64,000 bases of DNA, taken from the NCBI GenBank assembly GCA_903913285.1, contig CAIWKO010000036.1, forward strand, positions 142,691-206,690, written 5' to 3'. Position numbers and translations under genes: made by a program. This DNA is from an uncultured Bacteroidales bacterium. GTDB taxonomy: Bacteria; Bacteroidota; Bacteroidia; Bacteroidales; CAIWKO01. This document shows positions 3,141 to 54,011 of this stretch, piece by piece. Positions within the stretch are counted from its first letter, which is position 1, and the number at the start of each line of letters is the position of its first letter. The notes under the pieces were generated by a model. That model had not been told where the DNA came from. It searched no databases and saw only the letters and a list, made by a program, of their open reading frames with translations.

Positions 3141-3144
3141 ACTT

Positions 3145-4377
3145 CTAATTTTCTATTGTCGCAAGTTTTGAAAGTAGTAAATCTTTCAATGTACTTAAAG
3201 CAATTTGCTGTTTCTTTTTCATTTTTAAACAGTTGTTCAAATTCATACTACTGATCATGTACTTTTGTAAAATGTATTTTGATGGAAATACAATTTTTTG
3301 TTGGCCAAAAGTTTTAATAGTGATTGCACTCTGAGTAGATCCAATAGTTATTTCATTGATTAAGTTGGTAAATTGTTCAGTTTGCATAAAATCATACAAT
3401 AAATAATTTGAATTTTCATACTTAAAATTCTTAAACCAAATTACATTCCCGTCTTTGAAGTAGAACTCTTCCTCATCAACCATATAGGTAGAACCTATTG
3501 TGCCAACGGCGGTCATTAGAATGTCTCCTTTGCTTGGTTTACCATAGTTCTTGATAAGTTCATCATATCGTTTATAAGAAATATAGATAAGGTCTGAAAT
3601 AACTGCACCTGCTTTTTTTTGCGTAATTTCTTTCCCTCTATAGAAAGGTATTCCGTATTTTTGATATTCACTCTCAAAAATCCTTTTGCTTGAAGTTATT
3701 TCACAAATTGAAGAAATTTCTTTCAATTCCCATCCCTTCGGCACGTCCCCCAATTCACTTTCCACCAACTCCCCACCATTCGTTTTATAAGGTTTTCCTG
3801 CTGCATCCGGAAATTCAAAATCAACAAACCACTGCTTATAAATGGCCTGTGCCGTTTCTTCCAGTTTTTGTATAAGTTGGTTATTCAGATTAATGCGGTC
3901 AACAATGGCGTTGTATTCTTTTACGATTTCTTTTTGTTTTTCAGGGCTTGGAATAGGTAGTTCAGTATTACACATTTCTTCCCATGAGAACATTTCACGA
4001 ACACTACCATGCGACATAAATCTTGCATAACGGTCAAACTCTGGTCTGCGAAACCACATCATCAAGTATTCAGGCAGCAATTCTTTTTCATCTTTTATTT
4101 CGAACACATCATAGGCTTGTGAAACCATAGCTGTTTTGTCTTCCTGATATAACGCAATAGTAATCTTCTCGCCATTACGTGATGTAACAGAGCAATAAGC
4201 AAACTGATTTTTATTGAGAATTCTATAGGTCGACATATCCGTTCCTATAGTGTTTGAAATGGATGGAATAAATTTTTTCTGTATACTCAACCCGATCAAA
4301 TTATCAATTTGAAGGTTTCGGTTCCGTTTGTCAACCAAATTGATATAATCTTCCAGCCGCTTATAATTTGATCTCAT
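3145..4377 (-). CDS. hsdS: Type I restriction-modification specificity subunit HsdS
   Basis: 410 aa with two variable halves separated by a conserved helical spacer (LPIPSPEKQKEIVKEYNAIVDRINLNNQLIQKLEETAQAIYKQWFVDFEFP), with a similar C-terminal helix. Start overlaps the hsdM stop by 17 nt. Confidence 0.85.
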   Translation of the reverse strand: MRSNYKRLEDYINLVDKRNRNLQIDNLIGLSIQKKFIPSISNTIGTDMSTYRILNKNQFAYCSVTSRNGEKITIALYQEDKTAMVSQAYDVFEIKDEKELLPEYLMMWFRRPEFDRYARFMSHGSVREMFSWEEMCNTELPIPSPEKQKEIVKEYNAIVDRINLNNQLIQKLEETAQAIYKQWFVDFEFPDAAGKPYKTNGGELVESELGDVPKGWELKEISSICEITSSKRIFESEYQKYGIPFYRGKEITQKKAGAVISDLIYISYKRYDELIKNYGKPSKGDILMTAVGTIGSTYMVDEEEFYFKDGNVIWFKNFKYENSNYLLYDFMQTEQFTNLINEITIGSTQSAITIKTFGQQKIVFPSKYILQKYMISSMNLNNCLKMKKKQQIALSTLKDLLLSKLATIEN

Positions 4378-5935
4378 ACCCTAGTTCTATAAAAACTTTC
4401 AGCAAATCATTTTTCGATTGTTCTTCGGCTTTCAGCAGTTCGGCAAACTCGCTTTGCAATACCTGCATCTTTTCATCAAAATCTATACTCTCATCACGGT
4501 TGATAAACTCTATGTATTTGCTGGGCACCAACGAAAAATCCTTTTTTAGCACTTCGTCAAAAGAAGCACTGTGACAAAATTCAGGAATATTAAAGGCATT
4601 GGACACTTCATGTTGTACCCCCAAAGTTTGCCAATTATGAAAGGTTTCCGTAACCTTCCTAATGTCTTCTTCCGAAAACTGCACGTATTTCTTTTCAAAG
4701 GGAATACCCATTTGCCTCAGGTCCATAAACAGAATTTCACGTTCGCGATCCCTGTAATTCTTTACCGTTCCATCGTGTTCCACGATTCTGGCTTTTTTGT
4801 TTTTATTCAAAATCCAGATGGTAACACTGATATCGGTGGTATAAAACAAATTGCGGGGCATCACCATAATAGCTTCTACCAGATTGTTCTCAATAATTTT
4901 CCTTCTGATCTTATATTCCTCACCTCCACCGCTCAGAGCACCATTGGCCAATACAAAACCGGCCATCCCATCATCTGATAATTTGCTCACCATGTTCAAT
5001 ATCCATGCATAGTTGGCATTGCCTGTAGGCGGCACATCATAACCACGCCAGCGTGGGTCGTCCACCAATTCATTATCTGCCCTCCATTGTTTTTGGTTAA
5101 AAGGCGGATTGGCCATAATATAATCGGCTTTCAGGTCCTTGTGCTGGTCGTCGGCAAAGGTGTTGGCAGCCTTTTCGCCCAGGTTGGCCGATATTCCGCG
5201 TATGGCCAGGTTCATCTTGGCCAGTTTGTAAGTGGTGTTGGTATATTCCTGTCCGTAAATAGAAACTTCCTGTTTGTTGCCGTGGTGGCTCTCTATAAAC
5301 TTTATGGATTGCACAAACATACCCCCCGAACCGCAGCAGGGGTCATAAATAATGCCTTTATAAGGCTCTATCATTTCGGCTATCAGGTTAACTATGCTTT
5401 TTGGGGTATAGAATTCTCCTTTACCCTTGCCTTCGGCCAAAGCAAATTTGCTCAGGAAATATTCGTACACCTTGCCCACTATATCCTGCTGTTTGTCTTT
5501 CAGGGTATCAATATTGCTGATCTCATCAATCAGTGAGGCCAGTTTCGAGGCATCCAGTCCCAGACGGGAGAAATAGTTATCAGGCAGGGCGCCTTTCAGC
5601 GATTTGTTGTTCTTTTCAATAGTATGCAATGCCGTGTCAATGATCAAAGCCAGGTCGCTTTGTTTGGCTTTTTTCACAATATAGCTCCAGCGCGAAATTT
5701 CTTCCAGGTAAAACACATTGCTCATATTATAGAAATCAGCCATTTCAATGTATTTCTCTTTGCCATCGACAATCAACTTTGCCCTGTGTTCTTCAAATTT
5801 ATCGCTGGCAAACTTCAAAAAAATCAAACCCAACACCACATGTTTATACTCGGCAGGTTCTACACTACCCCTCAGTTTATTCGCCGCTTCCCAAAGGTTC
5901 ACTTCAATCGCTTTCGCTTTAACTTCTTTCGCCAT
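4361..5935 (-). CDS. hsdM: Type I restriction-modification DNA methyltransferase subunit HsdM (N6-adenine)
   Basis: AdoMet motif DPCCGSGGMF, catalytic NPPF (IMANPPFNQKQW) and the N-terminal HsdM_N-like segment LWEAANKLRGSVEPAEYKHVVLGLIFLKF. Confidence 0.9.
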   Translation of the reverse strand: MAKEVKAKAIEVNLWEAANKLRGSVEPAEYKHVVLGLIFLKFASDKFEEHRAKLIVDGKEKYIEMADFYNMSNVFYLEEISRWSYIVKKAKQSDLALIIDTALHTIEKNNKSLKGALPDNYFSRLGLDASKLASLIDEISNIDTLKDKQQDIVGKVYEYFLSKFALAEGKGKGEFYTPKSIVNLIAEMIEPYKGIIYDPCCGSGGMFVQSIKFIESHHGNKQEVSIYGQEYTNTTYKLAKMNLAIRGISANLGEKAANTFADDQHKDLKADYIMANPPFNQKQWRADNELVDDPRWRGYDVPPTGNANYAWILNMVSKLSDDGMAGFVLANGALSGGGEEYKIRRKIIENNLVEAIMVMPRNLFYTTDISVTIWILNKNKKARIVEHDGTVKNYRDREREILFMDLRQMGIPFEKKYVQFSEEDIRKVTETFHNWQTLGVQHEVSNAFNIPEFCHSASFDEVLKKDFSLVPSKYIEFINRDESIDFDEKMQVLQSEFAELLKAEEQSKNDLLKVFIELGYEIKL

Positions 5936-6182
5936 TTTGTTTTAATAATATTCGATTTATGAATTGCCTGTTCAGATATTAGTTCTTTCCTGATCAGATA
6001 TTAATCATTTTCACACTTCAAATGTATCTATTTTTTCAAAACAATACATTTGAGTTTGTTTTTATTTTTTAAGAACAGTTTAAATTTAAATTTTGATAAG
6101 AAGGTCTTGAGTGTTTTTCAAAAACAACCTGTTCGGCTGTTCATCCTGACTGAAAGGAGGTTCCGCGGGAGATGAGGGCTGT

Positions 6183-6371
6183 TTGGCATCCCGTTCCGGC
6201 AGTTTCGCGGTGTGCTCCCTTTACTTCGCGGTGTGCTCCCTTTGTTTCGCGCTGCACTCCCTTTGTTTCGCGGTATGCTCCTTTTGTTTCGCGGTATGCT
6301 CCCTTTGTTTCGCGCTGCACTCCCTTTGTTTCGCGGTATGCTCCTTTTGTTTCGCGGTGCGTTCAGTTTGC
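6183..6371. repeat. 21-bp tandem array A1 (8-9 units, consensus TTCGCGGTGTGCTCCCTTTGT)
   Basis: TTCGCG unit starts at 6204, 6225, 6246, 6267, 6288, 6309, 6330 and 6351, all exactly 21 apart. The array ends in a 29-nt junction, gttcagtttgctttgtgaggggtgaacga (6361-6389). Confidence 0.95.
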
Positions 6372-6444
6372 TTTGTGAGGGGTGAACGATATTAGCAGAA
6401 TGACACACTTTTCTGAACACTCCCTGAACACTCCCTATAACAAC

Positions 6445-6906
6445 ACTTGAACCGACCAATACAACACCCGAATTGTTCAATACATAACTTGAACCGACCA
6501 TAACGATACCCGAATTGTATATAACGACACTTGAACCGACCATTACGATACTTGAATTGTTCAATACATAACTTGAACCGACCAATACAACACCCGAATT
6601 GTTCAATACATAACTTGAACCGACCATTACGATACCCGAATTGTTTATAACAACACTTGAACCGACCATTACGATACTTGAATTGTTCAATACATAACTT
6701 GAACCGACCATTACGATACCCGAATTGTTTATAACAACACTTGAACCGACCATTACGATACTTGAATTGTTCAATACATAACTTGAACCGACCATTACGA
6801 TACTTGAATTGTTCAATACATAACTTGAACCGACCATTACGATACCCGAATTGTTTATAACAACACCTGAACCGACCATAACGATACTTGAATTGTTCTT
6901 CGCGTA
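6445..6906. repeat. 21-bp-period tandem array B1 (22 half-units; 42-bp super-unit ACTTGAACCGACCATTACGAT+ACCCGAATTGTTTATAACAAC)
   Basis: The AC(T/C)(T/C)GAA unit start recurs from 6445 to 6886. That is 441 nt, or 21x21, so there are no indels across 462 bp. Confidence 0.95.
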
Positions 6907-7066
6907 CAAGTATTAACTCAATCCCAAACTGCAATTATTCTTTCTGCTTCATAAAATATACGTTTCGTTCATGTCATTGTTCATTTAATCGAAGTCAGAA
7001 TTCTTTTCGATTTTGTCAATGGTGTTTCCATACTTGTCAATGTCATTTCAGTGATGGTCAAGTTGT

Positions 7067-7444
7067 TTCGCGGCGTGGTCAAGTTGTTTCGCAATGCGTT
7101 CCCATAACATTTCGGTGTGCTCCCTTTGTTTCGCGCTGCACTCCCTTTGTTTCGCGCTGCACTCCCTTTGTTTCGCGGTGTGCTCCCTTTGTTTCGCGGT
7201 GCGCTCCTTTTGTTTCGCGGTATGCTCCCTTTGCTTCGCGGTGCGCTCCTTTTGTTTCGCGGTGTGCTCCCTTTGTTTTGCGGTGCGCTCCCTTTACTTC
7301 GCGGTGCGTTCCCTTTGTTTCGCGACGCGCTCCTTTTGTTTCGCGGTGTGCTCCCTTTGCTTCGCGGTGTGCTCTTTTTGCTTCGCGGTGCGCTCCTTTT
7401 GTTTCGCGGTGCGCTCCCTTTACTTCGCGGTACGTTCAGTTTGC
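7067..7444. repeat. 21-bp tandem array A2 (18 units, same family as A1)
   Basis: Unit starts run from 7067 to 7424 (357 = 17x21). One unit has a +2/-2 compensating offset near 7109-7130. The array is followed by a 29/29 identical copy of the A1 junction at 7434-7462. Confidence 0.95.
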
Positions 7445-7476
7445 TTTGTGAGGGGTGAACGAGAGACTGTTCTGAC

Positions 7477-7539
7477 ACTTGAATTGTTTATAACGGCACT
7501 TGAACCGACCATAACGATACCCGAATTGTTCTTTACGAC
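7477..7539. repeat. Short B-type array B2 (3 half-units)
   Basis: acttgaattgtttataacggc / acttgaaccgaccataacgat / acccgaattgttctttacgac, lying directly after the A2 junction in the same order as A1-junction-B1. Confidence 0.85.
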
Positions 7540-7617
7540 ATGAAACTGTTTTTTAAAGATAAAGCTTTTAAAGTTGATGATTCATCGTTTTACTACATTG
7601 TCTATCTATATTCTCTC

Positions 7618-7885
7618 TACCCTGAAGGCAGCAATACCATTCATGCCTTTATCAAAAACAACTTGGTTTATCCACTTCAAGCAATAGAAAAGGAAAGCAG
7701 GTCAATGTATTCGTAACCTTTGAAATTAAAACTGATGGTAGTCTGTCGCATCCGAAAATATTGCGATGTATAGGAAATGGCGGCGATGTGGTAGCCCTTC
7801 GGGTATTGGAATTGATGTCAAAATGGTCGCCGGCGCAATCGCATGGGAAACTGGCTTGATCAACCTATACGTTGGTCGTTAGGTT
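7618..7885 (+). pseudogene. TonB C-terminal-domain gene fragment (frameshift plus in-frame stop, no N-terminal part)
   Basis: Frame a reads YPEGSNTIHAFIKNNLVYPLQAIE. After a shift in the A-run near 7686-7692, frame b reads KGKQVNVFVTFEIKTDGSLSHPKILRCIGNGGDVVALRVLELMSKWSPAQSHGKLA*STYTLVVRF. This is the classic TonB_C pattern (YP..A...G.QG.V.V.F.V..DG......V........D.EA.RV...MP.W.P....GK.V....T.P..F). Confidence 0.6.
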
Positions 7886-7959
7886 TTTGTATTATTGGGT
7901 AATTATTAATTAATGTTCTCTAATGCACTAAAAAATAGAGAATCAAATAATGTAGAAGT

Positions 7960-9222
7960 TTATTTAAAAAAATCAACATACTTTCTTGCAACTAATTCCG
8001 CATCTAACTTTAAATATTTCATAAATGCACGTTCGGTTTTGTGTCCACTGAATTTCATTATGGCTTGGGCTGGCATACCCGCAAGATATTTTAACGTGCA
8101 GAAAGTTCTTCTACAGGTATGCGATGAGACTAATTCGTATTTTTTATAAATATGTTCGGTAGTTTTTCCAGCAATTTTTTTTAATATTAACACGTCTTCA
8201 TCAATTTTCGCCTTTTCACAAATTTTTCTGATTGTTTTATTAAATTCTGTCAATTCGCAACATCGATCTTCATGCTTGCTAGCAAATAGAATACCCAATG
8301 TTTTTTTTAATCTTGAACTAATAGGAATGACAACTTGATTATTTAACACCCTACCCTCAGTCTTTTTGGGCCTGAAATATAAATTACCGTTTTTTATATT
8401 TTCTTTTTTAATCCTAGTAAAATCACTGAATCTCAATCCTGTTTCGCAACCCACAATAAATAAATATCTGATAAAAGAATCCTGTAAGTCTTCTAAAGAA
8501 ATACTTTCAATTTTTTCGAGATCAGATTCTGTAAGATATATATTATCGACTTCTTCAGTTTTAGTTACCATATGTTTTAAACTAAAAGCTGTACTCATAT
8601 CCTTGTCAAAATACCAATTTAAAAATACTTTTAAGTTTTTAAATTGTTTCCCCACTGTATTAGCACTGAGACCTTTTTCGCCTTTTGCATTTATTGCCTC
8701 ATAAGTGAGGTAGTGATCCATTTGATCAATAAATCCTCCATTTTTTTCCTTCAACATTAAAAATGTGATAGGTTTTCCTAAAATATTTTCAATCTTTTTA
8801 AGATGTTTTCTGAGGGAATTATCATAATCTCTAATATCTCCTAACTGGTTTTTTTTATAAACAATAAATTCCTCAAAATACTCCCAAAAGGAATTTGGCT
8901 TAATTATTTTTATTGGATTATCTTTTGCTGCAATAAAATTCTTTTTAAGAGTTTCTTCATCCGGTATTATTCCAGCATTCCAAAATTCTTTATATACCTC
9001 CGTCATTATCATTCTATAGGTCTCTATTCTATCATTGATTTCAGAATGTTCAGGAAATTCAATTAGTTCTCTAACTCGCTGAATTTTGCCATTCCAATAT
9101 TTAGGATAAACACTAATACCCGTTGGTATTTTTATCTTTTGATTCTCATAAATAAAAATCAGATTAATCATTGTCCTTTTCTTTACACTTTTATTTCTGA
9201 GATAAAAATTTACCTTTGTCAT
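7960..9222 (-). CDS. Tyrosine-type site-specific recombinase/integrase (Bacteroidota phage-integrase family)
   Basis: 420 aa with an N-terminal arm-type domain (MTKVNFYLRNKS...). The C-terminal catalytic region has GLRFSDF, HTCRRTFCT and GHKTERAFMKYL (R...HxxR...Y). Confidence 0.85.
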   Translation of the reverse strand: MTKVNFYLRNKSVKKRTMINLIFIYENQKIKIPTGISVYPKYWNGKIQRVRELIEFPEHSEINDRIETYRMIMTEVYKEFWNAGIIPDEETLKKNFIAAKDNPIKIIKPNSFWEYFEEFIVYKKNQLGDIRDYDNSLRKHLKKIENILGKPITFLMLKEKNGGFIDQMDHYLTYEAINAKGEKGLSANTVGKQFKNLKVFLNWYFDKDMSTAFSLKHMVTKTEEVDNIYLTESDLEKIESISLEDLQDSFIRYLFIVGCETGLRFSDFTRIKKENIKNGNLYFRPKKTEGRVLNNQVVIPISSRLKKTLGILFASKHEDRCCELTEFNKTIRKICEKAKIDEDVLILKKIAGKTTEHIYKKYELVSSHTCRRTFCTLKYLAGMPAQAIMKFSGHKTERAFMKYLKLDAELVARKYVDFFK

Positions 9223-16429: not shown

Positions 16430-16960
16430 ATTCGTTTAAGTTTATTGCAAGTGATTTTCTTCGAAGAATATTCTCTCCCAAGCTTCGCACCTACAAATAT
16501 AGGTAGTTTTTGCAGATCATGCAAGAATTTTCTTCATGAATCAGTTAATGGTAGGTTTTATCAAGTTGCGTTAAAATTTTGTGATTGGTGATTTGATTTA
16601 AATCATCCTTTGCAATTGATGCAATTGGAATATATTTTTCCGATACCATTATTAAACTTCCTTATGATTTTACCCCCCCCAAAAAAATATTACTGGCTTA
16701 TACCGTTGGGATTTAAATTATCCTTCCCCAATAAATACCCCTACAGTAAATGTATTTAAAGTTACTTTAAACTGGACTATAATTAGAGGAAGTTATACTG
16801 CGAATAGTTGAGAAAATATTTATTAATTGGAAATTTAAAGGCACAGACAGATGTAATAAAATATATATTTCCGTTTGGAGAAACTCAATGGTGTTATTAT
16901 TTTTATGATAATTTTTTATTTTATCCTTGTGAAGATACAATACCGCAAAAAGAAAAACCG

Positions 16961-27611: not shown

Positions 27612-27700
27612 ATTGGTGATTAGCGATTGGCGATTAGCGATTGGATTGCCATGTTAGGGGTTTAGCTATTTAGCTGTTTAGACGTTTAGGGGTTTAGGTG
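27612..27700. repeat. Micro-tandem arrays: five 7-mers (ATTGGTG ATTAGCG ATTGGCG ATTAGCG ATTGGAT), then six 8-mers (GTTAGGGG TTTAGCTA TTTAGCTG TTTAGACG TTTAGGGG TTTAGGTG)
   Basis: Read directly (27612-27646 and 27653-27700). They lie in the spacer upstream of sucD. Confidence 0.9.
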
Positions 27701-27734
27701 AGGCAGGCGAACGGACACGGTATACTTTTGGTTC

Positions 27735-28400
27735 TTATTTTAGCTTAAACCTCATTTCATTCAATTTCCTGTGAAGACCATCTTTTCCCCGCGCCATTAT
27801 ATTATAAAACTTTACATCATCATTTGAAGAACAGTATCCCATTATGAATTCAATTAAAAGAGGAGTAAATCTACCCCCAATAATATCAGATTTAAACATA
27901 ACTGAATCTTTCCTGGAAATTTCAACCGAATAAGATGTTATCATAAAAGAGGTTTCAAAACCATCTATCTTTGGAAGAATACCATCTGCATCGCATAAAA
28001 GTTCTTTATCTATCATGCCTCCTTTTAAACCATAATTTAAACCATAGAGATAAGGTATTGGGTCTGGTACTATTTTTAATCGAAAATATAAAGAATCTAT
28101 CCAATATACTACGTCGTTTTTCAATATTCCAACATACACTTTATCAATGTGGGATGCACTGTCAAAACCCCAAATATTATAATGGCATCCTTTACCTGAA
28201 ATTTCACCAACACTTGTCTTAACAACTATGTCTTTACACGAACAATTTTCAAGAACGACGGTTATCGGATTAAAACATCCTTTATAAAAAACATTCATTT
28301 GATCCGGCATTACTGCGGCTGTTTGACTATACAGTTGTATTGTCAGGATGGTCAGAAGTGATGTCTGAAAGATCTTTATCAGTGTATTTCTTTTGGTCAT
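27735..28400 (-). CDS. Secreted hypothetical protein (weak, unverified resemblance to the GldM C-terminal region)
   Basis: The track start at 28421 is TTG; ATG at 28398-28400 gives MTKRNTLIKIFQTSLLTILTIQLYSQ (signal peptide). The LKIVPDPIPYLYG...GG.IDK..L pattern resembles GldM-type segments from memory only. Confidence 0.5.
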   Translation of the reverse strand: MTKRNTLIKIFQTSLLTILTIQLYSQTAAVMPDQMNVFYKGCFNPITVVLENCSCKDIVVKTSVGEISGKGCHYNIWGFDSASHIDKVYVGILKNDVVYWIDSLYFRLKIVPDPIPYLYGLNYGLKGGMIDKELLCDADGILPKIDGFETSFMITSYSVEISRKDSVMFKSDIIGGRFTPLLIEFIMGYCSSNDDVKFYNIMARGKDGLHRKLNEMRFKLK

Positions 28401-28418
28401 TTTAGTTTTTTCTCCCTC

Positions 28419-28438
28419 CAAAATTACAAATTAAATCC
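28419..28438 (-). promoter_or_regulatory. Recurrent 20-mer CAAAATTACAAATTAAATCC (minus-strand TAATTTTG -7 box), copy 1
   Basis: The reverse complement contains TAATTTTG, which matches TAnnTTTG, 18 nt upstream of ATG 28400. Near-identical copies are at 31568 and 51499. Confidence 0.4.
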
Positions 28439-28550
28439 TACTCAAAAAGTATTTCCCGCAGATTTCGCAGATCTACGCAGATAAATAATGTTCGATTCTG
28501 AATTTTTCTGCCACAAAGGCACGAAGACACTAAGAACCACAAAGAATAAT

Positions 28551-28575
28551 AAAAAAGGGCGTATCCCCCACGCCC
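28551..28575 (-). terminator. Rho-independent terminator (GGGCGT/ACGCCC stem)
   Basis: On the minus strand: GGGCGT-gggggat-ACGCCC followed by TTTTTT. Downstream of the gene ending at 28643. Confidence 0.7.
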
Positions 28576-28580
28576 TCACG

Positions 28581-28622
28581 TACCAGATACCAGATACCAG
28601 ATATCACAGACCATTTACCTAT
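28581..28622. repeat. Heptamer array TACCAGA x3, TATCACA, GACCATT, TACCTAT
   Basis: Read directly. It lies between the stop of 28643..30376 and its terminator. Confidence 0.85.
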
Positions 28623-31567: not shown

Positions 31568-31587
31568 CAAAATTACAAATTAAATGC
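31568..31587 (-). promoter_or_regulatory. Recurrent 20-mer CAAAATTACAAATTAAATGC (TAATTTTG -7 box), copy 2
   Basis: 19/20 identical to 28419-28438. It lies 50 nt upstream of ATG 31518. Confidence 0.35.
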
Positions 31588-32425: not shown

Positions 32426-32537
32426 AGCTTTATGGTTTTTAGTGAAAATAATAAATATTTTAAATTATTGATTTATATTACTTTAAAAATGTTATTTGCA
32501 TTTGAATTTTAAATAACGGGTATGAACTGCATTTTTG

Positions 32538-32747
32538 CGAAGGTCAATCTTCTATCAGCGAAAGTCGATCTTCGGATACCGAAGGTCAATCTTCTATCAG
32601 CGAAAGTCGATCTTCGGACATCGAAGGTCAATCTTCTATACGCGGGGGTCGATCTTCGGATGCCGAAGGTCAATCTTCTATACGCGGGGGTCGATCTTCG
32701 GATGCCGAAGGTCAATCTTCTATACGCGGGGGTCGATCTTCGGACAC
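32538..32747. repeat. 21-bp-period tandem array C (10 half-units = 5 x 42 bp; CGAAGGTCAATCTTCTATCAG + CGAAAGTCGATCTTCGGATAC)
   Basis: Unit starts run from 32538 to 32727 (189 = 9x21), with no indels. The shared core is GTC(A/G)ATCTTC. The second half-unit has an imperfect dyad around TCGA. Confidence 0.95.
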
Positions 32748-32899
32748 CCAAAATGCATCCTCTGCCCATCATCATCTATTTAAATTCTTTCAAAGAACAA
32801 TTTCTGTTTCGCAACTTGTAAATACAAAAGTATAATGAAACATTGCCACGATGCTTGGCAAAGATGGGGTGAAAATTACGGTTTTTTGTGGCAATTCTT

Positions 32900-49337: not shown

Positions 49338-50564
49338 ATGAAATCTGCAGAAACTATTGTTATAGGCAGCGGACCCGCGGGTTTGTCGGCTGCCATTAGC
49401 TGTAAGCAGAAGCCTGTGTTGGTTTTGGAAAAGAATACATCGGCAGGAAAAAAACTACTGATTGCAGGTTCCGGAAGATGTAATTTAACGCATGACAGCG
49501 ATATTAAAGATTTTTTTGATCATTACGGTTTAAATGCCCGTTTTTTGAAGACCGCGTTGCTTAACTACTCGAACCGACAATTGATAGACTTTTTTAAAGA
49601 AAAAGGGCTGGATATTTATATCGATAAGAACGGAAAAGTGTTTCCCGAATCGGATAGTTCGGCAAATGTACTCAGTGTCTTGCTAAAATGCTGCAAAGAA
49701 AACGAAGTGGAGGTGGTTTATAAGCAAAATGTTATTAGCGTAAAGCATAAAAACGGTCAATTTGCGGTTCGCACACCCACCGAATCTTACTTATGCAAAA
49801 ATATTATCGTTGCCACAGGTGGAAAATCTTATGTCAACACGGGTTCGACCGGAGACGGGTATGAAATTGCCCGGTCGTTCGGGCATACTATCGTTACGCC
49901 TAAACCTGCCCTCACTCCCGTTTACAGCAATTCTCTGAATTTGGTTCAACTGGCAGGCGTTACGCTGCAAAATCTGTTGATATGTCTGTACCGTAAAAAT
50001 AAGAAGATAGCCGAACACAAGGGCGATGTGGTTTTTACGCATAAGGGACTTTCGGGGCCCGGCATTTTGGATTTTTCGAGGCAGTTCGAAGCGGGCGACC
50101 TGCTTAAACTTAATTTCACAGGTTTGCATAGCGACGATTTCCGCCATTATTTTATCGCGGCAGTTGAAATGGATGGTAAATCAACTGTGCAATCATTCCT
50201 CAAACGTTTTGATATTCCAAAGAGCCTGATACAAACAGTTCTGGGTAAATATAAAATAGACCCCACCGATAACCTTGCTGAAATTACCAAAGCGGAACGC
50301 ATCACCATTACAAACGACTTTTGCGAGTTCGAAGTGGCTGTTACGCGTATGGGAGGCTTCGATGTAGCAATGGTTACGGCAGGCGGGGTGCATCTGAGCG
50401 AGGTTTCGTCGCGAACGATGGAATCGAAACTTGTGTCGGGATTGTATTTTGCGGGCGAGGTGCTGGATATAGACGGCGACACGGGAGGCTATAATCTGCA
50501 GGCTGCTTTTTCTACCGGACATCTGGCGGGGAAAAGCATCTCAAATAGGGGTTTAGGGGTTTAG
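49338..50564 (+). CDS. HI0933-family NAD(P)/FAD-dependent oxidoreductase
   Basis: GSGPAGL dinucleotide fold at the N-terminus and C-terminal GLYFAGEVLDIDGDTGGYNLQAAFSTG. The last codons (RGLGV*) are encoded by the octamer repeat array. Confidence 0.8.
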   Translation: MKSAETIVIGSGPAGLSAAISCKQKPVLVLEKNTSAGKKLLIAGSGRCNLTHDSDIKDFFDHYGLNARFLKTALLNYSNRQLIDFFKEKGLDIYIDKNGKVFPESDSSANVLSVLLKCCKENEVEVVYKQNVISVKHKNGQFAVRTPTESYLCKNIIVATGGKSYVNTGSTGDGYEIARSFGHTIVTPKPALTPVYSNSLNLVQLAGVTLQNLLICLYRKNKKIAEHKGDVVFTHKGLSGPGILDFSRQFEAGDLLKLNFTGLHSDDFRHYFIAAVEMDGKSTVQSFLKRFDIPKSLIQTVLGKYKIDPTDNLAEITKAERITITNDFCEFEVAVTRMGGFDVAMVTAGGVHLSEVSSRTMESKLVSGLYFAGEVLDIDGDTGGYNLQAAFSTGHLAGKSISNRGLGV

Positions 50565-50670
50565 AGGTTTAGCTTTTTAGGCGTTTAGTCTTTTAGGTAA
50601 CAGGTAACAGGTAATAAGTAATAGGTACTTCTTACTTCTTACTTCTTACTTCTTACTTCTTACTTCTTAT
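50546..50670. repeat. Three abutting micro-tandem arrays: six 8-mers (TAGGGGTT type), five 7-mers (AGGTAAC type), six 7-mers (TTCTTAC)
   Basis: Read directly: 50546-50593, 50595-50628 and 50629-50670. The second and third arrays are mutually complementary around GTAC (50625-50628). Confidence 0.95.
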
Positions 50671-50704: not shown

Positions 50705-51376
50705 CTAAACAGGCTTCTGGCTTTCGTCGTCGGGAAGGAGATAGTCGATGCCGGTAGAAGAGTTATCGTCGTCGTCTTCGTCGTCCCAGTGGTAGGTTTC
50801 GCGCTGGGTGCCGCGTTTGCGATAGTAAATGGCGAGTATGAAACCCGACAGTCCGCCCATGAGGTGCGATTCCCACGAGATGTTGCGATGGGGAAAGAAA
50901 TCGGGAAAGATGCCCCAGAAAAAGCCTCCGTACAGAAATATGATGAGCATGGAGATGGCCATCAGGCGGGCATTGCGGCGAATAAGCCCGCTGAAAAGCA
51001 AAAAGGTTACGTAGCCATACACCAAACCGCTGGCGCCGATATGGTAGGACGCACCCCGTGCGAACGACCACACCCATACCCCTGTGAAAAGCCACACCAA
51101 GCCGAATACATTATAAGCGATGTCGCGGTAGAAATAGAACACGATGCTGAGCGTAACAAACATGGGTATGGTGTTGGCCACCAGATGGCCATAATCGGCA
51201 TGGAGAAAGGGAGCCGTCACGATGCCGATGAGGCCGTGGGCAGTGAGGGGCAGGATGCCGAAGTTGGAGAAATCGGCTTTGAGAATGGTTTCTGCAATTT
51301 TAACCGCCCACATAACCGCTACCACCCCCAAGGGAAAGAGCATGGAGCGGAGCATTTTTTTGTATTCGGCGTTCAT
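50705..51376 (-). CDS. Rhomboid-family intramembrane serine protease
   Basis: GASGLVYG (G-x-S-G) and a downstream catalytic His (SHLMGGLSG). The track start at 51388 is TTG; ATG at 51374-51376 gives MNAEYKK... Confidence 0.8.
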   Translation of the reverse strand: MNAEYKKMLRSMLFPLGVVAVMWAVKIAETILKADFSNFGILPLTAHGLIGIVTAPFLHADYGHLVANTIPMFVTLSIVFYFYRDIAYNVFGLVWLFTGVWVWSFARGASYHIGASGLVYGYVTFLLFSGLIRRNARLMAISMLIIFLYGGFFWGIFPDFFPHRNISWESHLMGGLSGFILAIYYRKRGTQRETYHWDDEDDDDNSSTGIDYLLPDDESQKPV

Positions 51377-51388
51377 GGGGGAGTTCAA

Positions 51389-51448
51389 AGTTACGAGTTA
51401 CAAATTATGAGTTGCAATTGGTGATTAGTGATTTGTGATTTGATTTGG
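51389..51448. repeat. Heptamer array of 8 units (AGTTACG AGTTACA AATTATG AGTTGCA ATTGGTG ATTAGTG ATTTGTG ATTTGAT)
   Basis: Read directly. The last four units (51417-51444) form the left arm of a 28-bp inverted repeat. Confidence 0.9.
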
Positions 51449-51498
51449 TCAAAAACCAAACAAATCATGAGAGTTTTTTTTAAGATTCTTTTATATTT

Positions 51499-51518
51499 CA
51501 AAATTACAAATTAAATCC
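51499..51518 (-). promoter_or_regulatory. Recurrent 20-mer CAAAATTACAAATTAAATCC, copy 3
   Basis: 20/20 identical to 28419-28438. It points toward the rhomboid gene, 123 nt upstream of ATG 51376. Confidence 0.3.
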
Positions 51519-51679
51519 CAAACAGATCAAAATAAAAAAGTGTGTATGCTATACATCCCTGCTTCTTCCACCTTTTACATCACAACATTATTATGGTAAT
51601 AGTTTTATCTAATTCAACTGAAAACCCGAAATTCTCAGGTGTATTTTTAGGTTATTGTTATGGGCTTTTATATTTTCCA

Positions 51680-52057
51680 AGCCGGCTTAGAATAATTTGT
51701 AGCCTACTTAGAATAATTTGTAGCCGGCTTAGAATGTTTTGTAGCCGGCTTAGAATATTTTGTAACCGGCTTAGAATATTTTGTAGCCGGCTTAGAATGT
51801 TTTGTAGCCGGCTTAGAATAATTTGTAGCCGGCTTAGAATAATTTGTAGCCGGCTTAGAATAATTTGTAGCCTACTTAGAATATTTTGTAGCCGGCTTAG
51901 AATGTTTTGTAGCCGGCTTAGAATATTTTGTAGCCGGCTTAGAATATTTTGTAGCCGGCTTAGAATGTTTTGTAGCCGGCTTAGAATAATTTGTAGCCTA
52001 CTTAGAATAATTTGTAGCCGGCTTAGAATATTTTGTAGCCTACTTCAAATGTTTTTC
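51680..52057. repeat. 21-bp tandem array D (18 units, AGCCGGCTTAGAATAATTTGT)
   Basis: Unit starts run from 51680 to 52037 (357 = 17x21), with no indels. Each unit carries the 8-bp palindrome AGCCGGCT or its variant AGCCTACT. Variation is confined to positions 5-6 (GG/TA) and 15-16 (AA/GT/AT). Confidence 0.95.
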
Positions 52058-52080
52058 ACTACGCTTACAGTGGTTTTTCC

Positions 52081-52129
52081 ATCAAATCGCAAATAGCTAA
52101 TCACTAATCACTAAAAGTAAATCGCAATA
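52081..52129. repeat. Heptamer array (ATCAAAT CGCAAAT AGCTAAT CACTAAT CACTAAA AGTAAAT CGCAATA)
   Basis: Read directly. 52081-52108 is the right arm of the 28-bp inverted repeat with 51417-51444. Confidence 0.9.
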
Positions 52130-52226
52130 AATTTTCCGTCATTCACCGTCCGTATGGCGTTACTTATATATTTTATTTTGCACAGGCAGGTTTTATGCCG
52201 ACTTTTGCCTGAAGATTTATTGAGTC

Positions 52227-52340
52227 GGAAGTTGGAAGTTGGAAGTCCGAAGAAGGATGAATGGAAAAATGGAAGCCCGAAATTATATGCTGCCACTAAA
52301 CTTTGAACTTTTAAGTTTTAACCTCGAACTCATAACTTTT
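52227..52340. repeat. Heptamer arrays GGAAGTT x2, GGAAGTC, CGAAGAA... (52227-52282) and AACTTTG AACTTTT AAGTTTT AACCTCG AACTCAT AACTTTT (52299-52340)
   Basis: Read directly. The two arrays are roughly complementary (GGAAGTT versus AACTTTN). Confidence 0.8.
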
Positions 52341-52391
52341 TTGTTACTTTTGCGTTCTTAAATATAGAGAATCACTTCAGAAATTTATTTT

Positions 52392-54011
52392 ATGAAAAGA
52401 AAAGGTTTATTAGTTGCGCTGAAAACAGCTACAGTGCTGGTTGCATTTATGTTTGTGTGCGCCGCAAGCACCAACGCGCAAACACACGACCCGAAGAAAT
52501 CGGACCAGAAATATGCCGCGGCCCTGCAGGTTATCCGTATGGCTTATGTGGACACAGTGAACGAGGAAAAACTGACGGAAGCAGCCATAGTGGCCATGTT
52601 GAAGGATCTGGACCCGCATTCGGTTTACATGTCGAAAAAAGATATTGAGAGAGCCAACGAGCCGCTGATAGGCAATTTCGACGGCATAGGCGTTCAGTTC
52701 AACCTGATACTGGACACGATAGTGGTGCTCACTCCCACCCCCGACGGCCCGTCGGAAAAAGTGGGTATTATGGCCGGCGACAAAATTGTGAAGATAGACG
52801 GGCTGGATGCCGTTGGCCCCAAAATAAACACTGATTTTGTGGTAACCCACCTGCGCGGCCCCAAAGGCAGCTCGGTGAAAGTGAGCATCTACCGCAAAGG
52901 CAAAGCAGGCCTGCTTGATTACACCATTGTGCGCGACAAAATCCCCATAACCAGTGTGGACGCGGCTTATATGGAAACCGACGAGATCGGCTACATTAAA
53001 CTAAACAAATTTGCGCAAAACACTATGGAAGAATTTTATGACGCTATAGCGAAACTAAAAAAAGCAGGCATGAAAAGCCTGATATTAGACCTGCGCGACA
53101 ATTCGGGCGGCTATTTGAACACCGCCATAGAACTGGCCGACCAATTTTTGCCCGAAGGCCAGATGATAGTTTACACACAGGGACATTCGTCGCCCAAACA
53201 GGTGAGCATGGCAACCAACAAAGGAACTTTTGAAAAAGGAAAGCTTGTGGTTTTGATAAACGAAGGTTCTGCCTCGGCAAGCGAAATCGTTACAGGCGCC
53301 GTTCAGGACTGGGACCGCGCCCTCATCATCGGTCGCCGCTCGTTTGGCAAGGGATTGGTGCAACGCCCGTTCGATCTGCCCGACGGTTCGGTGATACGCC
53401 TCACCACGGCACACTACTACACTCCTACCGGACGCTGCGTTCAGAAACCTTACGACGAAGGTGTGGATAAATATTATAAAGACATCACCGACCGCTATAA
53501 ACACGGCGAACTGGTGAACCCCGACAGTATTAAATTTCCCGATTCACTGAAATATTACACGCCGAACAAACGCGTGGTATATGGCGGCGGTGGCATTATG
53601 CCCGACATTTTTATGCCGTTGGATACAACACGCATTTCGGATTATTATTCGAATCTGCTGCGCAAAAACATCATCAACCAGTTTGTTTTGAACTATCTGG
53701 ACGGGAAACGCGAAAACATGAAAAAACAATATCCCGATGCTAATGCCTTTTTGAAGAACTACATTATTGATGATGCATTTATGAGCAATTTCGTTGACTT
53801 TGCCGAAAAAGAAGGGGTAAAAAAAGATGAGAAAGGCTACAAATCGTCGGAAAAATATATCCGCAATTTCCTGAAGGCATGGATAGCCCGCAATTTGTGG
53901 GACTACGATGCTTACTGGCGCGTTTCGAATGAAGACGACGATGTGTTCCAGAAAGCAGTACAATCAATCCAGAGTAAGGATATGTTTAAGACTAACAAGA
54001 TATCTTATTAA
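52392..54011 (+). CDS. S41-family carboxy-terminal processing peptidase
   Basis: PDZ region (GIMAGDKIVKIDG), LILDLRDNSGG, LINEGSASASEI (catalytic Ser), GRRSFGKG (Lys). Confidence 0.85.
   Translation: MKRKGLLVALKTATVLVAFMFVCAASTNAQTHDPKKSDQKYAAALQVIRMAYVDTVNEEKLTEAAIVAMLKDLDPHSVYMSKKDIERANEPLIGNFDGIGVQFNLILDTIVVLTPTPDGPSEKVGIMAGDKIVKIDGLDAVGPKINTDFVVTHLRGPKGSSVKVSIYRKGKAGLLDYTIVRDKIPITSVDAAYMETDEIGYIKLNKFAQNTMEEFYDAIAKLKKAGMKSLILDLRDNSGGYLNTAIELADQFLPEGQMIVYTQGHSSPKQVSMATNKGTFEKGKLVVLINEGSASASEIVTGAVQDWDRALIIGRRSFGKGLVQRPFDLPDGSVIRLTTAHYYTPTGRCVQKPYDEGVDKYYKDITDRYKHGELVNPDSIKFPDSLKYYTPNKRVVYGGGGIMPDIFMPLDTTRISDYYSNLLRKNIINQFVLNYLDGKRENMKKQYPDANAFLKNYIIDDAFMSNFVDFAEKEGVKKDEKGYKSSEKYIRNFLKAWIARNLWDYDAYWRVSNEDDDVFQKAVQSIQSKDMFKTNKISY

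Follow-up and report, generated by a model that had tools for sequence, protein, structure and literature searches.

Among the described bacterial systems built on tandem or inverted repeats, invertible promoters are frequent in Bacteroidales. BOX elements of Streptococcus pneumoniae (boxA-boxB(n)-boxC) are present in more than 100 dispersed copies near gene starts and combine conserved modules with partly complementary ends, and the iterons of plasmid origins, for example those of R6K gamma ori and pPS10, are contiguous 22-bp direct repeats in 3–7 copies. BrickBuilt, described in Porphyromonas gingivalis and therefore another Bacteroidales case, is a single family whose members have unit, leader and tail in common, and occurs in 19 copies per genome (PMC4596501). 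In addition, PMC4679880, in its summary of Mrazek et al. 2007, describes heptanucleotide repeats as more common than any other long simple-sequence repeat in bacteria and ascribes them to slippage of the polymerase, and heptameric repeats are also noted in PMC4692102.

Here, we analyzed a repeat-bearing spacer within a 64-kb stretch of DNA (the window) from an uncultured Bacteroidales bacterium. The spacer, which measures 1015 bp in the window, separates divergent rhomboid-family and S41 peptidase genes, a divergent pairing that is kept in about 30 relatives, and harbors a 21-bp tandem array hereafter called array D. The ten genes adjoining it on one contig are of housekeeping types according to Pfam, two of the ten being without a Pfam match, in agreement with an earlier note on this DNA, in which no transposase had been recognized. 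The features of the locus are as follows (window coordinates).

50705–51376, minus strand: rhomboid-family gene, left neighbor (223 aa from the ATG at 51376; Pfam Rhomboid, E = 3e-15).
51379–51416, no strand: AACTNNN-type heptamer-periodic run just upstream of the rhomboid gene, conserved in the sister lineage L085; left member of an outer inverted pair.
51386–51393, minus strand: Bacteroidetes-type −7 box TAACTTTG inside this run, facing the rhomboid gene side.
51417–51444, plus strand: left arm, a GATTNGY heptamer run (ATTGGT GATTAGT GATTTGT GATTTGA T), with one substitution in L085.
51444–51481, no strand: small hairpin TTTGGTCAAAAACCAAA plus T-run in the conserved flank, resembling the seed of the arrays of the relatives L085 and L005.
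51482–52080, no strand: lineage-specific core of about 600 bp, without detectable similarity in either orientation at the sister-lineage position and without a match elsewhere.
51499–51518, minus strand: 20-mer promoter-like motif GGATTTAATTTGTAATTTTG, ending in the −7 box TAATTTTG (51499–51506) and pointing to the rhomboid gene.
About 51529–51556, minus strand: second weak hairpin plus T-run (consensus match only).
51624–51640, minus strand: weak terminator-like hairpin plus T-run between array D and the rhomboid promoter motifs (consensus match only).
51680–52036, plus strand: array D, consensus AGCCGGCTTAGAATATTTTGT, 17 clean 21-bp units without indels, with a 168-bp (8-unit) higher-order repeat.
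52037–52078, plus strand: two decayed units at the right edge of array D, matching the consensus at 14/21 (52037) and 12/21 (52058) positions.
52081–52108, minus strand: right arm, made of GATTNGY-family heptamers in opposite orientation to the left arm, of which the sister lineage keeps only 14 nt (ATCAAATCACTAAT).
52109–52344, no strand: right-hand part of the spacer, in which two blocks, 52109 to about 52270 and about 52324 onward, are conserved in the sister lineage (about 82–95%) and separated by heptamer-run indels.
About 52224–52255, no strand: GGAAGTY heptamer run in the right-hand spacer.
About 52296–52340, no strand: AACTNNN heptamer run in the right-hand spacer.
52345–52352, plus strand: −7 box TACTTTTG of the S41 peptidase gene, within its promoter block.
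52392–54011, plus strand: S41 (C-terminal processing) peptidase gene, right neighbor (Pfam Peptidase_S41, E = 7e-54, plus PDZ and CtpB_N-like domains).

Array D consists of head-to-tail, non-coding units within the 10–100 bp range of minisatellites, and by tandem-repeat measure comprises 17.2 copies of the 21-bp unit with 92% matches and 0% indels, each unit carrying one A/T tract and an 8-bp palindrome. The earlier note had counted 18 units with two alternative cores; 17 clean units can be retained, the remainder being one or two decayed units, and the two cores described (AGCCGGCT in 13 units and AGCCTACT in 4) are joined by a third variant, AACCGGCT, which was present once and had been missed. 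All six combinations of the two variable slots are indeed present; however, the combinatorial character ascribed to this variation was not sustained, as self-identity reaches 0.974 when the array is offset by 168 bp (8 units), compared to 0.90–0.94 at other lags, indicating that the variation reflects a duplicated higher-order block and no combinatorial design. Such a higher-order structure, together with decayed edges, is expected from unequal exchange. The dyad symmetry of the unit is not unusual relative to shuffled units (p = 0.41; 0.15 when combined over ten arrays), and the suggested link to restriction through the GCCGGC (NaeI/NgoMIV-type) site found no counterpart in site avoidance within the window (9 sites observed vs. 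9.7 expected). The 184-aa ORF overlapping the array is spurious, with no Pfam family and no homologue detected in a search that returned not even the query, in line with the non-coding status first given to the region. A scan for tRNA and tmRNA genes found none, and a CRISPR array was rejected because the units abut without spacers.

These properties are akin to those of locus-specific intergenic minisatellites (VNTR loci) and long heptanucleotide repeats of bacteria, namely head-to-tail non-coding units, higher-order structure and decayed edges. Similarly, copy number changes in a sibling array of the window (array E, whose length in the sister lineage differs by 84 bp between the samples L174 and L175), and intergenic 7-nt runs come and go between close strains. 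In contrast to VNTR loci, the long arrays analyzed here cluster at a period of 21 or 42, and one spacer has been repopulated by three unrelated arrays in three related lineages. Plasmid iterons are likewise contiguous direct repeats of about two helical turns beside an AT-rich stretch, but array D has 17–18 copies, lies in a chromosomal housekeeping setting with no rep or par gene nearby, and shares its 64 kb with several unrelated arrays. An iteron or partition-site array was accordingly rejected, the neighbors being the rhomboid and S41 genes in conserved chromosomal synteny and the spacer having no blastn match among plasmid and phage records.

Comparison with the relatives revealed how the spacer is partitioned. 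In the sister lineage L085, the S41 peptidase is 99% identical at the amino acid level and the flanks are 92–95% identical at the nucleotide level (L085/L172), whereas the interior of about 600 bp is unrelated to that of the window, with random-level identity in both orientations, and contains a different 21-bp array. On the left side, identity to L085 falls from 0.95 (51420–51459) to 0.62 (51460–51499), and blastn homology stops at 51480; both arms and 37 bp inside the left arm persist. The enclosed stretch (about 51482–52080) can hence be confirmed as a discrete segment, and one specific to this lineage. The orthologous spacer of L005, an 86% relative, carries a third, unrelated 21-bp array. 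Only these three spacers are long (1067 bp in L085 and 821 bp in L005), and their arrays, each about 320–400 bp, share the period of 21 with unrelated unit sequences. A search of 5.8 billion proteins with the S41 protein returned no further close relatives. About 25 more distant relatives have a spacer of 102–325 bp (most 120–175 bp) without an array. The S41 promoter block with its −7 box is conserved even where the spacer of the relatives measures 140–175 bp.

The units of the three arrays were further compared with nearby spacer sequence. The L085 unit, taken as its reverse complement, agrees at 17/21 positions with the orthologous stretch in its own left flank (p = 0.003); the L005 unit, also as its reverse complement, matches window positions 51448–51468 at 17/21 (p = 0.019); and the D unit matches L005:5187–5207 at 16/21, including the 12-mer AATTTGTAGCCG (p = 0.003), all of these being short matches found among seven tests. 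The array seeds therefore look local, as judged from this resemblance (p 0.003–0.02). In the L085 array, T.AATT is kept in 16/16 units in strict register, the other unit positions being 40–90% conserved, which hints at a constraint on that array.

The 28-nt inverted pair that the earlier note placed around the segment (51417–51444/52081–52108) was readily recovered, with 24 Watson–Crick pairs, 3 G–T pairs and one G–A mismatch. The weaker outer pair also exists (51387–51399/52327–52339, 13 nt at 92%; another, 12 nt at 92%) and is likewise heptamer-periodic sequence (AACTNNN). No chance match to the arm was found in shuffled sequence, so that the pair exceeds what random sequence offers; compared to other members of its own heptamer family, however, it does not exceed chance. 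Identity of the left arm is 24/28 positions with the right arm, 22/28 with a direct-orientation run 24 kb away, 20/28 with another run, and 23/28 with a GATTNGY run that only the sister lineage has. The complementarity is thus hardly better than that of similar heptamer arrays, 24/28 lying barely above 20–23/28. Moreover, the arm stretches pair in three registers 7 nt apart (the other two, I1 and I3, extending over 39 nt at 74% and 29 nt at 76%), as expected from two heptamer runs in opposite orientation.

Period 7 tandem repeats are enriched over periods 4–13, and runs of the GATTNGN type were located at 16583, 27618, 51423 and 52096 in the window, plus two in L085. Their polarity relative to the downstream gene is identical in 6/6 intergenic runs, a rule confined to the GATTNGN family, as AACTNNN heptamer runs showed no such rule across lineages. 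The arms are made of tandem 7-nt units of a family that recurs at other intergenic sites, as in heptanucleotide simple-sequence repeats and, judged by their sequence, are members of a lineage-specific, dispersed GATTNGY simple-repeat family. Since GATTNGY runs in this lineage always lie upstream and in the same polarity to the gene, two such runs in a divergent spacer are inverted by construction. The inverted repeat is a by-product and not a functional terminus.

Taken together, these results favor array D as an ordinary bacterial minisatellite over a mobile element or a giant hairpin. More specifically, we consider it probable that array D is a locally born, fast-turnover intergenic minisatellite in a repeat-rich, lineage-specifically expanded spacer. 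According to this model, an ancestral spacer of about 100–330 bp (most 120–175 bp) would have gained heptamer simple-sequence runs, a kind of long simple-sequence repeat already described and ascribed to slippage of the polymerase. A local 21-nt stretch would then have been duplicated and amplified through slippage or unequal sister-strand exchange, and later unequal exchanges may have generated the 8-unit higher-order block and reshuffled the two variable sites while the edges decayed. Array D most likely has no sequence-specific function and would do no more than lengthen the AT-rich DNA between the promoters by about 0.4 kb. As 21 bp correspond to two helical turns with one A/T tract per unit, the array DNA should be intrinsically curved.

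Tandem repeats in 1.47 Mb of related DNA are dominated by periods 7, 21 and 14. Among the long intergenic arrays of this clade in the same 1.47 Mb, 10/16 have a period of 21 or 42 and none of 14, 28 or 35, most of them with 0% indels; because these last three periods are missing, “multiple of 7” is not the whole explanation. Furthermore, three independent arrays of the same period and similar length at one orthologous spacer are more than a random birth process would predict. Both observations, like the T.AATT of the L085 units, count against the preferred reading.

One reading of this bias, possible but on balance unlikely, is that the 21-bp phasing is itself selected, each unit presenting the same helix face while the unit sequence is replaceable. 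The array would then provide curved DNA, or a scaffold for the cooperative binding of a nucleoid-associated or dimeric protein, between divergent promoters. The three unrelated arrays of similar length in the same spacer of three lineages, the 10/16 long arrays with period 21 or 42 and mostly 0% indels, the T.AATT that is invariant and in exact register in the L085 units, and the A/T tract and 8-bp palindrome in each D unit are all in its favor. On the other hand, the unit differs in every array, so that a sequence-specific binder would be needed for each; the dyad symmetry of the unit is no greater than that of shuffled units; the roughly 25 relatives with a short spacer manage without an array; and no gene for a DNA-binding protein is adjacent. 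Much of the between-unit variation is higher-order structure, which weakens the argument drawn from the lack of indels, and 21 is 3 x 7 in a lineage prone to heptamer slippage. Somewhat more doubtful is the extension to the whole clade, in which arrays of arbitrary sequence would be regenerated repeatedly from local seeds as curved-DNA or nucleoprotein scaffolds, for instance insulating or coupling divergent promoters; selection on the 21-bp period would explain both the three unrelated arrays at one spacer and the 10/16 with a period of 21 or 42.

We give little credence to a second alternative, in which the interior of about 600 bp was brought in from an unsampled lineage by homologous recombination via the conserved flanks, although several observations fit it. 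Identity drops abruptly from 92–95% to random level at both edges, and a second replaced segment between the same two lineages lies at 27700–28600. Moreover, array E is conserved between the window and the sister lineage, so that arrays need not diverge so fast and the loss of similarity at locus D reflects segmental replacement and not simple fast drift. Such an allele would be a “small variable segment”, a kind to which much of within-species diversity belongs; small variable segments are described in PMC2884548. Nevertheless, no donor-like sequence was found in the GTDB genome set, JGI metagenomes, plasmid, phage and viral collections, or among homologues in the 5.8 billion proteins. In exact-pattern scans the D unit had 0 matches in viral contigs and 0 in JGI metagenomes, a collection from which the strain itself is absent. 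The resemblance of the unit seeds to the same-spacer sequence of relatives rather favors an origin in situ, as in the locally born minisatellite.

The earlier note had further envisaged a MITE-like non-autonomous element, which in the style of BrickBuilt or BOX would have moved as a unit; we regard this as very unlikely. A 28-nt imperfect inverted repeat does bracket a non-coding array and an outward promoter-like motif, a general anatomy shared with BrickBuilt (PMC4596501). As in BrickBuilt, the host is a member of the Bacteroidales, the location is intergenic and non-coding, the terminal inverted repeats are small, promoter activity is associated (the 20-mer here being promoter-like by sequence), and the internal minisatellite has a unit of about two helical turns (23 nt in BrickBuilt, 21 here) in up to about 20 copies. 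With BOX, the locus shares a modular build near gene starts, in which internal tandem modules of variable number are enclosed by ends that are complementary in part. However, the arms belong to a simple-repeat family and stay behind when the interior is exchanged; on the left side, homology ends 37 bp inward of the arm. As had been noticed, there is no target-site duplication at the arm ends, where the flanks read GAGTTGCA followed by ATTGG on the left and ACTAAT followed by CACTAAAA on the right, with no direct repeat. Within the sequence searched, namely the window (64 kb of a parent contig of at least 238 kb), about 1.4 Mb of related loci, and the plasmid, phage and viral (mobile-element) collections, arms, unit and interior did not recur, and neither the dispersal nor the conserved modules of BOX were found. 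Array D is single-copy in all sequence searched and similar to none of the window's other arrays in any rotation or orientation, the five arrays of the window representing four unrelated unit families, compared to the one unit plus leader and tail of BrickBuilt.

An invertible promoter switch is highly improbable; in such a switch, recombinase-mediated inversion of the arm-bounded segment would direct the 20-mer promoter to either the rhomboid or the S41 gene. Similar to the invertible promoters of Bacteroidales, a segment of a few hundred bp (about 640 bp) flanked by inverted repeats lies upstream of genes, here between two divergent ones, and carries a promoter-like motif with an outward-facing −7 box. 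This motif is the third copy of the 20-mer reported before, and that identification stands: CAAAATTACAAATTAAATCC at 51499–51518 is identical to 28419–28438 and matches 18/18 positions at 31568–31585. Unlike those promoters, no alternative orientation is seen in the available assemblies. All assemblies that reach the arm/core junction (L001–L004 and L165–L171) have, at the assembly level, the orientation and sequence of the window; those of full length are L165, in which array D is identical to that of the window, and L001, whose array contains an N gap, other contigs breaking within the array. An inverted copy as the source of the L085 interior was ruled out by the comparison in both orientations. 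The rhomboid and S41 genes each retain their own proximal −7 box outside the arm-bounded segment, the arms are degenerate simple repeats that pair over only 14 nt in the sister lineage, and the spacer has no recombinase gene next to it, the only tyrosine integrase/recombinase seen (7960–9222) being about 42 kb away in a separate strain-specific island.

The least credible reading is a structured RNA or DNA, be it a long transcript with arm-paired ends (the giant hairpin of the earlier note) or pairing between neighboring AGCCGGCU units, because the minimum free energy folds of both strands, in which the arms pair and the units stack (z = −14.8 and −9.6), are what any array with a self-complementary unit gives, while the arms pair over a mere 14 nt in L085 and no longer pair in the next relative, with no scorable compensatory change, the relatives dispense with the whole interior, no −7 box of the canonical type (TAnnTTTG) pointing into the array or segment was found in the scan, and Rfam gave 0 matches at gathering thresholds and, at E ≤ 1, only hairpin-like matches far below threshold. 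Matches in a sigma-70-type promoter scan, a model unsuited to Bacteroidetes, were no commoner than in shuffles.

Overall, the minisatellite reading carries little biological weight for the organism: a hypervariable non-coding array breaks short-read assemblies, as indicated by contigs that end within array D, and spawns a spurious 184-aa ORF. Array D could serve as a strain marker. At the level of the clade, the intergenic repeats have periods of almost only 7, 14, 21 and 42, and one spacer has been refilled three times. If this were to reflect selection on helical phasing and not a slippage bias, it would amount to a sequence-independent architectural DNA element in bacteria.

The 1015-bp spacer that holds the 21-bp tandem array D lies in the genome of an uncultured Bacteroidales bacterium (39% G+C) whose nearest genomes are MAGs assigned by their labels to Bacteroidota or Bacteroidales, with names that often refer to digesters or animal guts. 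It separates two divergent genes:

50705-51376, minus strand, rhomboid-family gene, left neighbour of the spacer
52392-54011, plus strand, S41 C-terminal processing peptidase gene, right neighbour of the spacer
52345-52352, −7 box of the S41 gene (Bacteroidetes-type TAnnTTTG), end of the S41 promoter block

This divergent arrangement is kept in about 30 loci. Some 25 of them have a spacer of 102-325 bp (most 120-175 bp) that is array-free and carries the conserved S41 promoter block ending in the TAnnTTTG −7 box; two more syntenic-looking loci, with gaps of 1.4 kb and 5.1 kb, stand outside this count. A long spacer with an array was found only in three close lineages, namely the window, a sister lineage (L085/L172, 1067 bp, S41 protein 99% identical to that of the window at the amino acid level) and the next relative (L005, 821 bp, 86%), and a search of 5.8 billion proteins returned no further close relatives.

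Flanks of the window and L085 are 92-95% identical; on the left, conservation takes in the left arm of the inverted repeat and the next 37 bp, and on the right a portion of the right arm and a large share of the ~280 bp that follow it. Between the arms, 51482-52080 showed random-level identity to the same position in L085 in both orientations. Since the arms are kept while the interior differs, the segment between them is a discrete variable unit, from which the arms themselves are excluded; it is a real, non-coding, strain-specific unit, which upholds the interpretation of the earlier note in part. At the position of array D, L085 carries a different and older array whose ~16 units keep an exact 21-bp register (L085 1060-1395; CATCAATTCAC plus a variable part), in which positions outside the invariant T.AATT are only 40-90% conserved. 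Divergence within this array grows toward the S41 side. L005 carries a third array (unit TTTTTTGGCATGTGTTGTTTG, 15.5 copies), and the units of the three arrays are unrelated in every rotation and orientation.

Array D itself consists of 17 clean units (51680-52036) and two decayed ones. The unit variants described previously are all present, although one unit reading AACCGGCT had been overlooked; the last unit carries four additional changes. The two variable slots occur in six of six combinations, which had been taken as combinatorial variation. Instead, self-identity reaches 0.974 at a 168-bp lag, compared to 0.90-0.94 at other lags, and a block of units (GT, AT, AT, GT, AA) recurs at a distance of eight units; both this duplication and the reassortment of the two variable sites are accounted for by unequal exchange inside the minisatellite. 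The 8-bp palindrome of the unit is not statistically unusual in a dyad test, and the suggested restriction-site link of GCCGGC was not upheld, as the site is not avoided elsewhere in the window. Same-strain short-read metagenome contigs (L002-L004, L166-L168) end within array D, and the same-strain scaffold L001 spans it with Ns.

The 28-nt inverted pair (51417-51444/52081-52108) was confirmed, with complementarity at 24/28 positions and G-T at three of the remaining four, as was a weaker outer pair. The arms pair in three registers, 7 nt apart, and each consists of a run of the same heptamer family, GATTNGY, which is also represented elsewhere in the window (16583 and 27618) and at additional sites in the sister lineage. 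Compared with 24/28 between the two arms, the left arm matches a direct-orientation run at 27612, 24 kb away, at 22/28, a run at 16570 at 20/28 and a run unique to the sister lineage at 23/28, so that the complementarity of the arms is what any two family members give. This is the outcome that the earlier note had itself named as refuting its reading. All six intergenic GATTNGY runs (about five of them independent) lie upstream of a gene and in the same polarity relative to it. This polarity rule is suggestive only; if real, two runs in a divergent spacer are necessarily inverted. Period 7 is the sole enriched short period in the window, the whole region being heptamer-rich, and a passage in PMC4679880 summarising Mrazek et al. 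2007 describes heptanucleotide runs as the most frequent of the long bacterial simple-sequence repeats and ascribes them to polymerase slippage. The arms are simple-sequence repeats and not termini.

L085 has a longer inverted repeat (65 nt at 71%; 817-881 versus 1730-1794), which joins the rhomboid-proximal heptamer block and an extra GATTNGY run beside the S41 promoter that is missing from the window. Heptamer runs are gained and lost between lineages ~93% identical. Downstream of the rhomboid gene, a (TACTTCT)n run in the convergent gap (50626-50669) counts 6.3 copies in the window against at least 12 in L085 (1-90), whose contig ends within it. Elsewhere, gene starts are directly preceded by (GGGAGTT)n arrays with as many as 17 copies (L009 1-70; L091 778-902), which present a Shine-Dalgarno-like GGAG every 7 nt, and G-rich octamer runs of the TTTAGGGG / TAGGGGTT type, telomere-like in look, occur at 27650-27705 and 50546-50588.

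The recurrence of the 20-mer at 51499-51518 was likewise confirmed (28419-28438 and 31568-31585). Its sense strand, GGATTTAATTTGTAATTTTG, ends in the −7 box TAATTTTG; in the window it precedes three unrelated minus-strand genes, with a hairpin and T-run before it at two or three sites, and in the sister lineage (L174, about 8040-8060) it precedes a different gene, OMP_b-brl_2, which replaces the window gene at 27735-28400. The 20-mer looks like a portable strong-promoter module. The latter exchange marks a second small variable segment (window 27700-28600 versus L174 7930-9160), bordered by heptamer and octamer runs, in which a 221-aa gene of unknown function stands in the window and a 244-aa outer-membrane beta-barrel gene in L174.

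Regarding alternative readings of the array D segment, a coding role for the 184-aa ORF that gene callers annotate over array D was rejected, the frame being kept open by the repeat, (SRLRIFC)n; the ORF reaches the threshold of no Pfam family, lacks homologues and is missing in the sister lineage. The giant hairpin or structured RNA envisaged earlier is not supported: arm pairing is down to 14 nt in L085 and absent in L005, strongly negative folding z-scores come with any array whose unit is self-complementary, and neither a −7 box directed into array D nor an Rfam match was found. An invertible switch is very unlikely, as every independent assembly reaching the arm/core junction has the orientation and sequence of the window; the −7 boxes of both flanking genes lie outside the segment, and no recombinase gene is found near the spacer. 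A MITE-like element is improbable, as the arms stay when the core changes, target-site duplication is absent at the arm ends, as already reported, and no second copy of the D unit, arms or leader (51482-51679) was located in the 64-kb window, in related loci totalling ~1.4 Mb or in collections of plasmid, phage and viral sequences. The nearest published analogue is BrickBuilt of P. gingivalis, a 23-nt minisatellite with leader, tail and small terminal inverted repeats in 19 copies per genome, defined by a common unit and common ends at many loci (PMC4596501). BrickBuilt has one shared unit, whereas the window holds five arrays of four unrelated unit families in 64 kb.

The segment is best explained as a minisatellite born locally. 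Array D would have arisen within a spacer that is rich in simple repeats and has expanded lineage-specifically; the inverted repeat would be a by-product of heptamer runs of the same family. In reverse complement, the L085 unit resembles conserved sequence immediately interior to the left arm of that lineage (17/21, p = 0.003) and the L005 unit resembles window 51448-51468 (17/21, p = 0.019), and the D unit matches L005:5187-5207, beside the L005 rhomboid start (16/21 including the 12-mer AATTTGTAGCCG, p = 0.003), all three being short matches found among seven tests. By eye, TAGCCGGC reappears in L005 ~45 bp farther along. After rotation, the L085 unit begins with 13 nt (ATCAATTCACAAA) that are one position off the heptamer family (ATCAAATCACAAA), direct evidence that three heptamers can give rise to a 21-bp unit. 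On the plus strand the L085 array is A/C-rich and the L005 and window arrays are G/T-rich, which fits seeding in opposite orientations. Taken together, local birth of the units appears likely.

In 1.47 Mb of related Bacteroidales DNA (L005-L164 plus the window), the prevailing tandem-repeat periods are 7 (34 arrays), 21 (18) and 14 (10). Among the 16 long arrays (at least 100 bp, period at least 10), 10 have period 21 or 42, five of them in the window alone, and none has period 14, 28 or 35. The number 21 is 3 x 7 and also two helical turns, and the absence of long arrays at 14, 28 and 35 speaks against a multiple of 7 being the full explanation. The window's own arrays and those checked in L005, L016, L023, L081 and L085 lie in intergenic DNA, the other intergenic 21-bp arrays being:

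L016:12890-13111
L023:10915-11024
L081:10584-10773

Nine 21-bp units compared showed no mutual relatedness, and most of the arrays compared have 0% indels. Within the window, arrays A-C make up a single composite block (6202-7431) that combines 21-bp arrays (unit GTTTCGCGGTGTGCTCCCTTT) with 42-bp ones and lies between hsdM (type I restriction-modification methylase, 4361-5935) and a tyrosine integrase gene (7960-9222). In the sister lineage an MbnP gene lies directly past the integrase in place of the window arrangement, which makes arrays A-C part of a strain-specific island (549-9222). Array E (32537-32748; 42 bp = 2 x 21, CTTCGG...CCGAAG dyad), whose neighbours are a 246-aa gene of unknown function and a GerE/LuxR-type regulator gene, is kept in the sister lineage (L174 3785-4045); it is 84 bp shorter in one sample (L174/L175 comparison), which makes it a genuine VNTR.

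These observations leave room for selection on 21-bp phasing, as three unrelated 21-bp arrays occupy one spacer in three lineages and the T.AATT core of the L085 array is invariant in 16/16 units; however, most relatives are array-free at this spacer, and array E, conserved between two lineages with its length difference between samples, behaves like an ordinary VNTR. It is the clade's bias toward period 21 that deserves follow-up.
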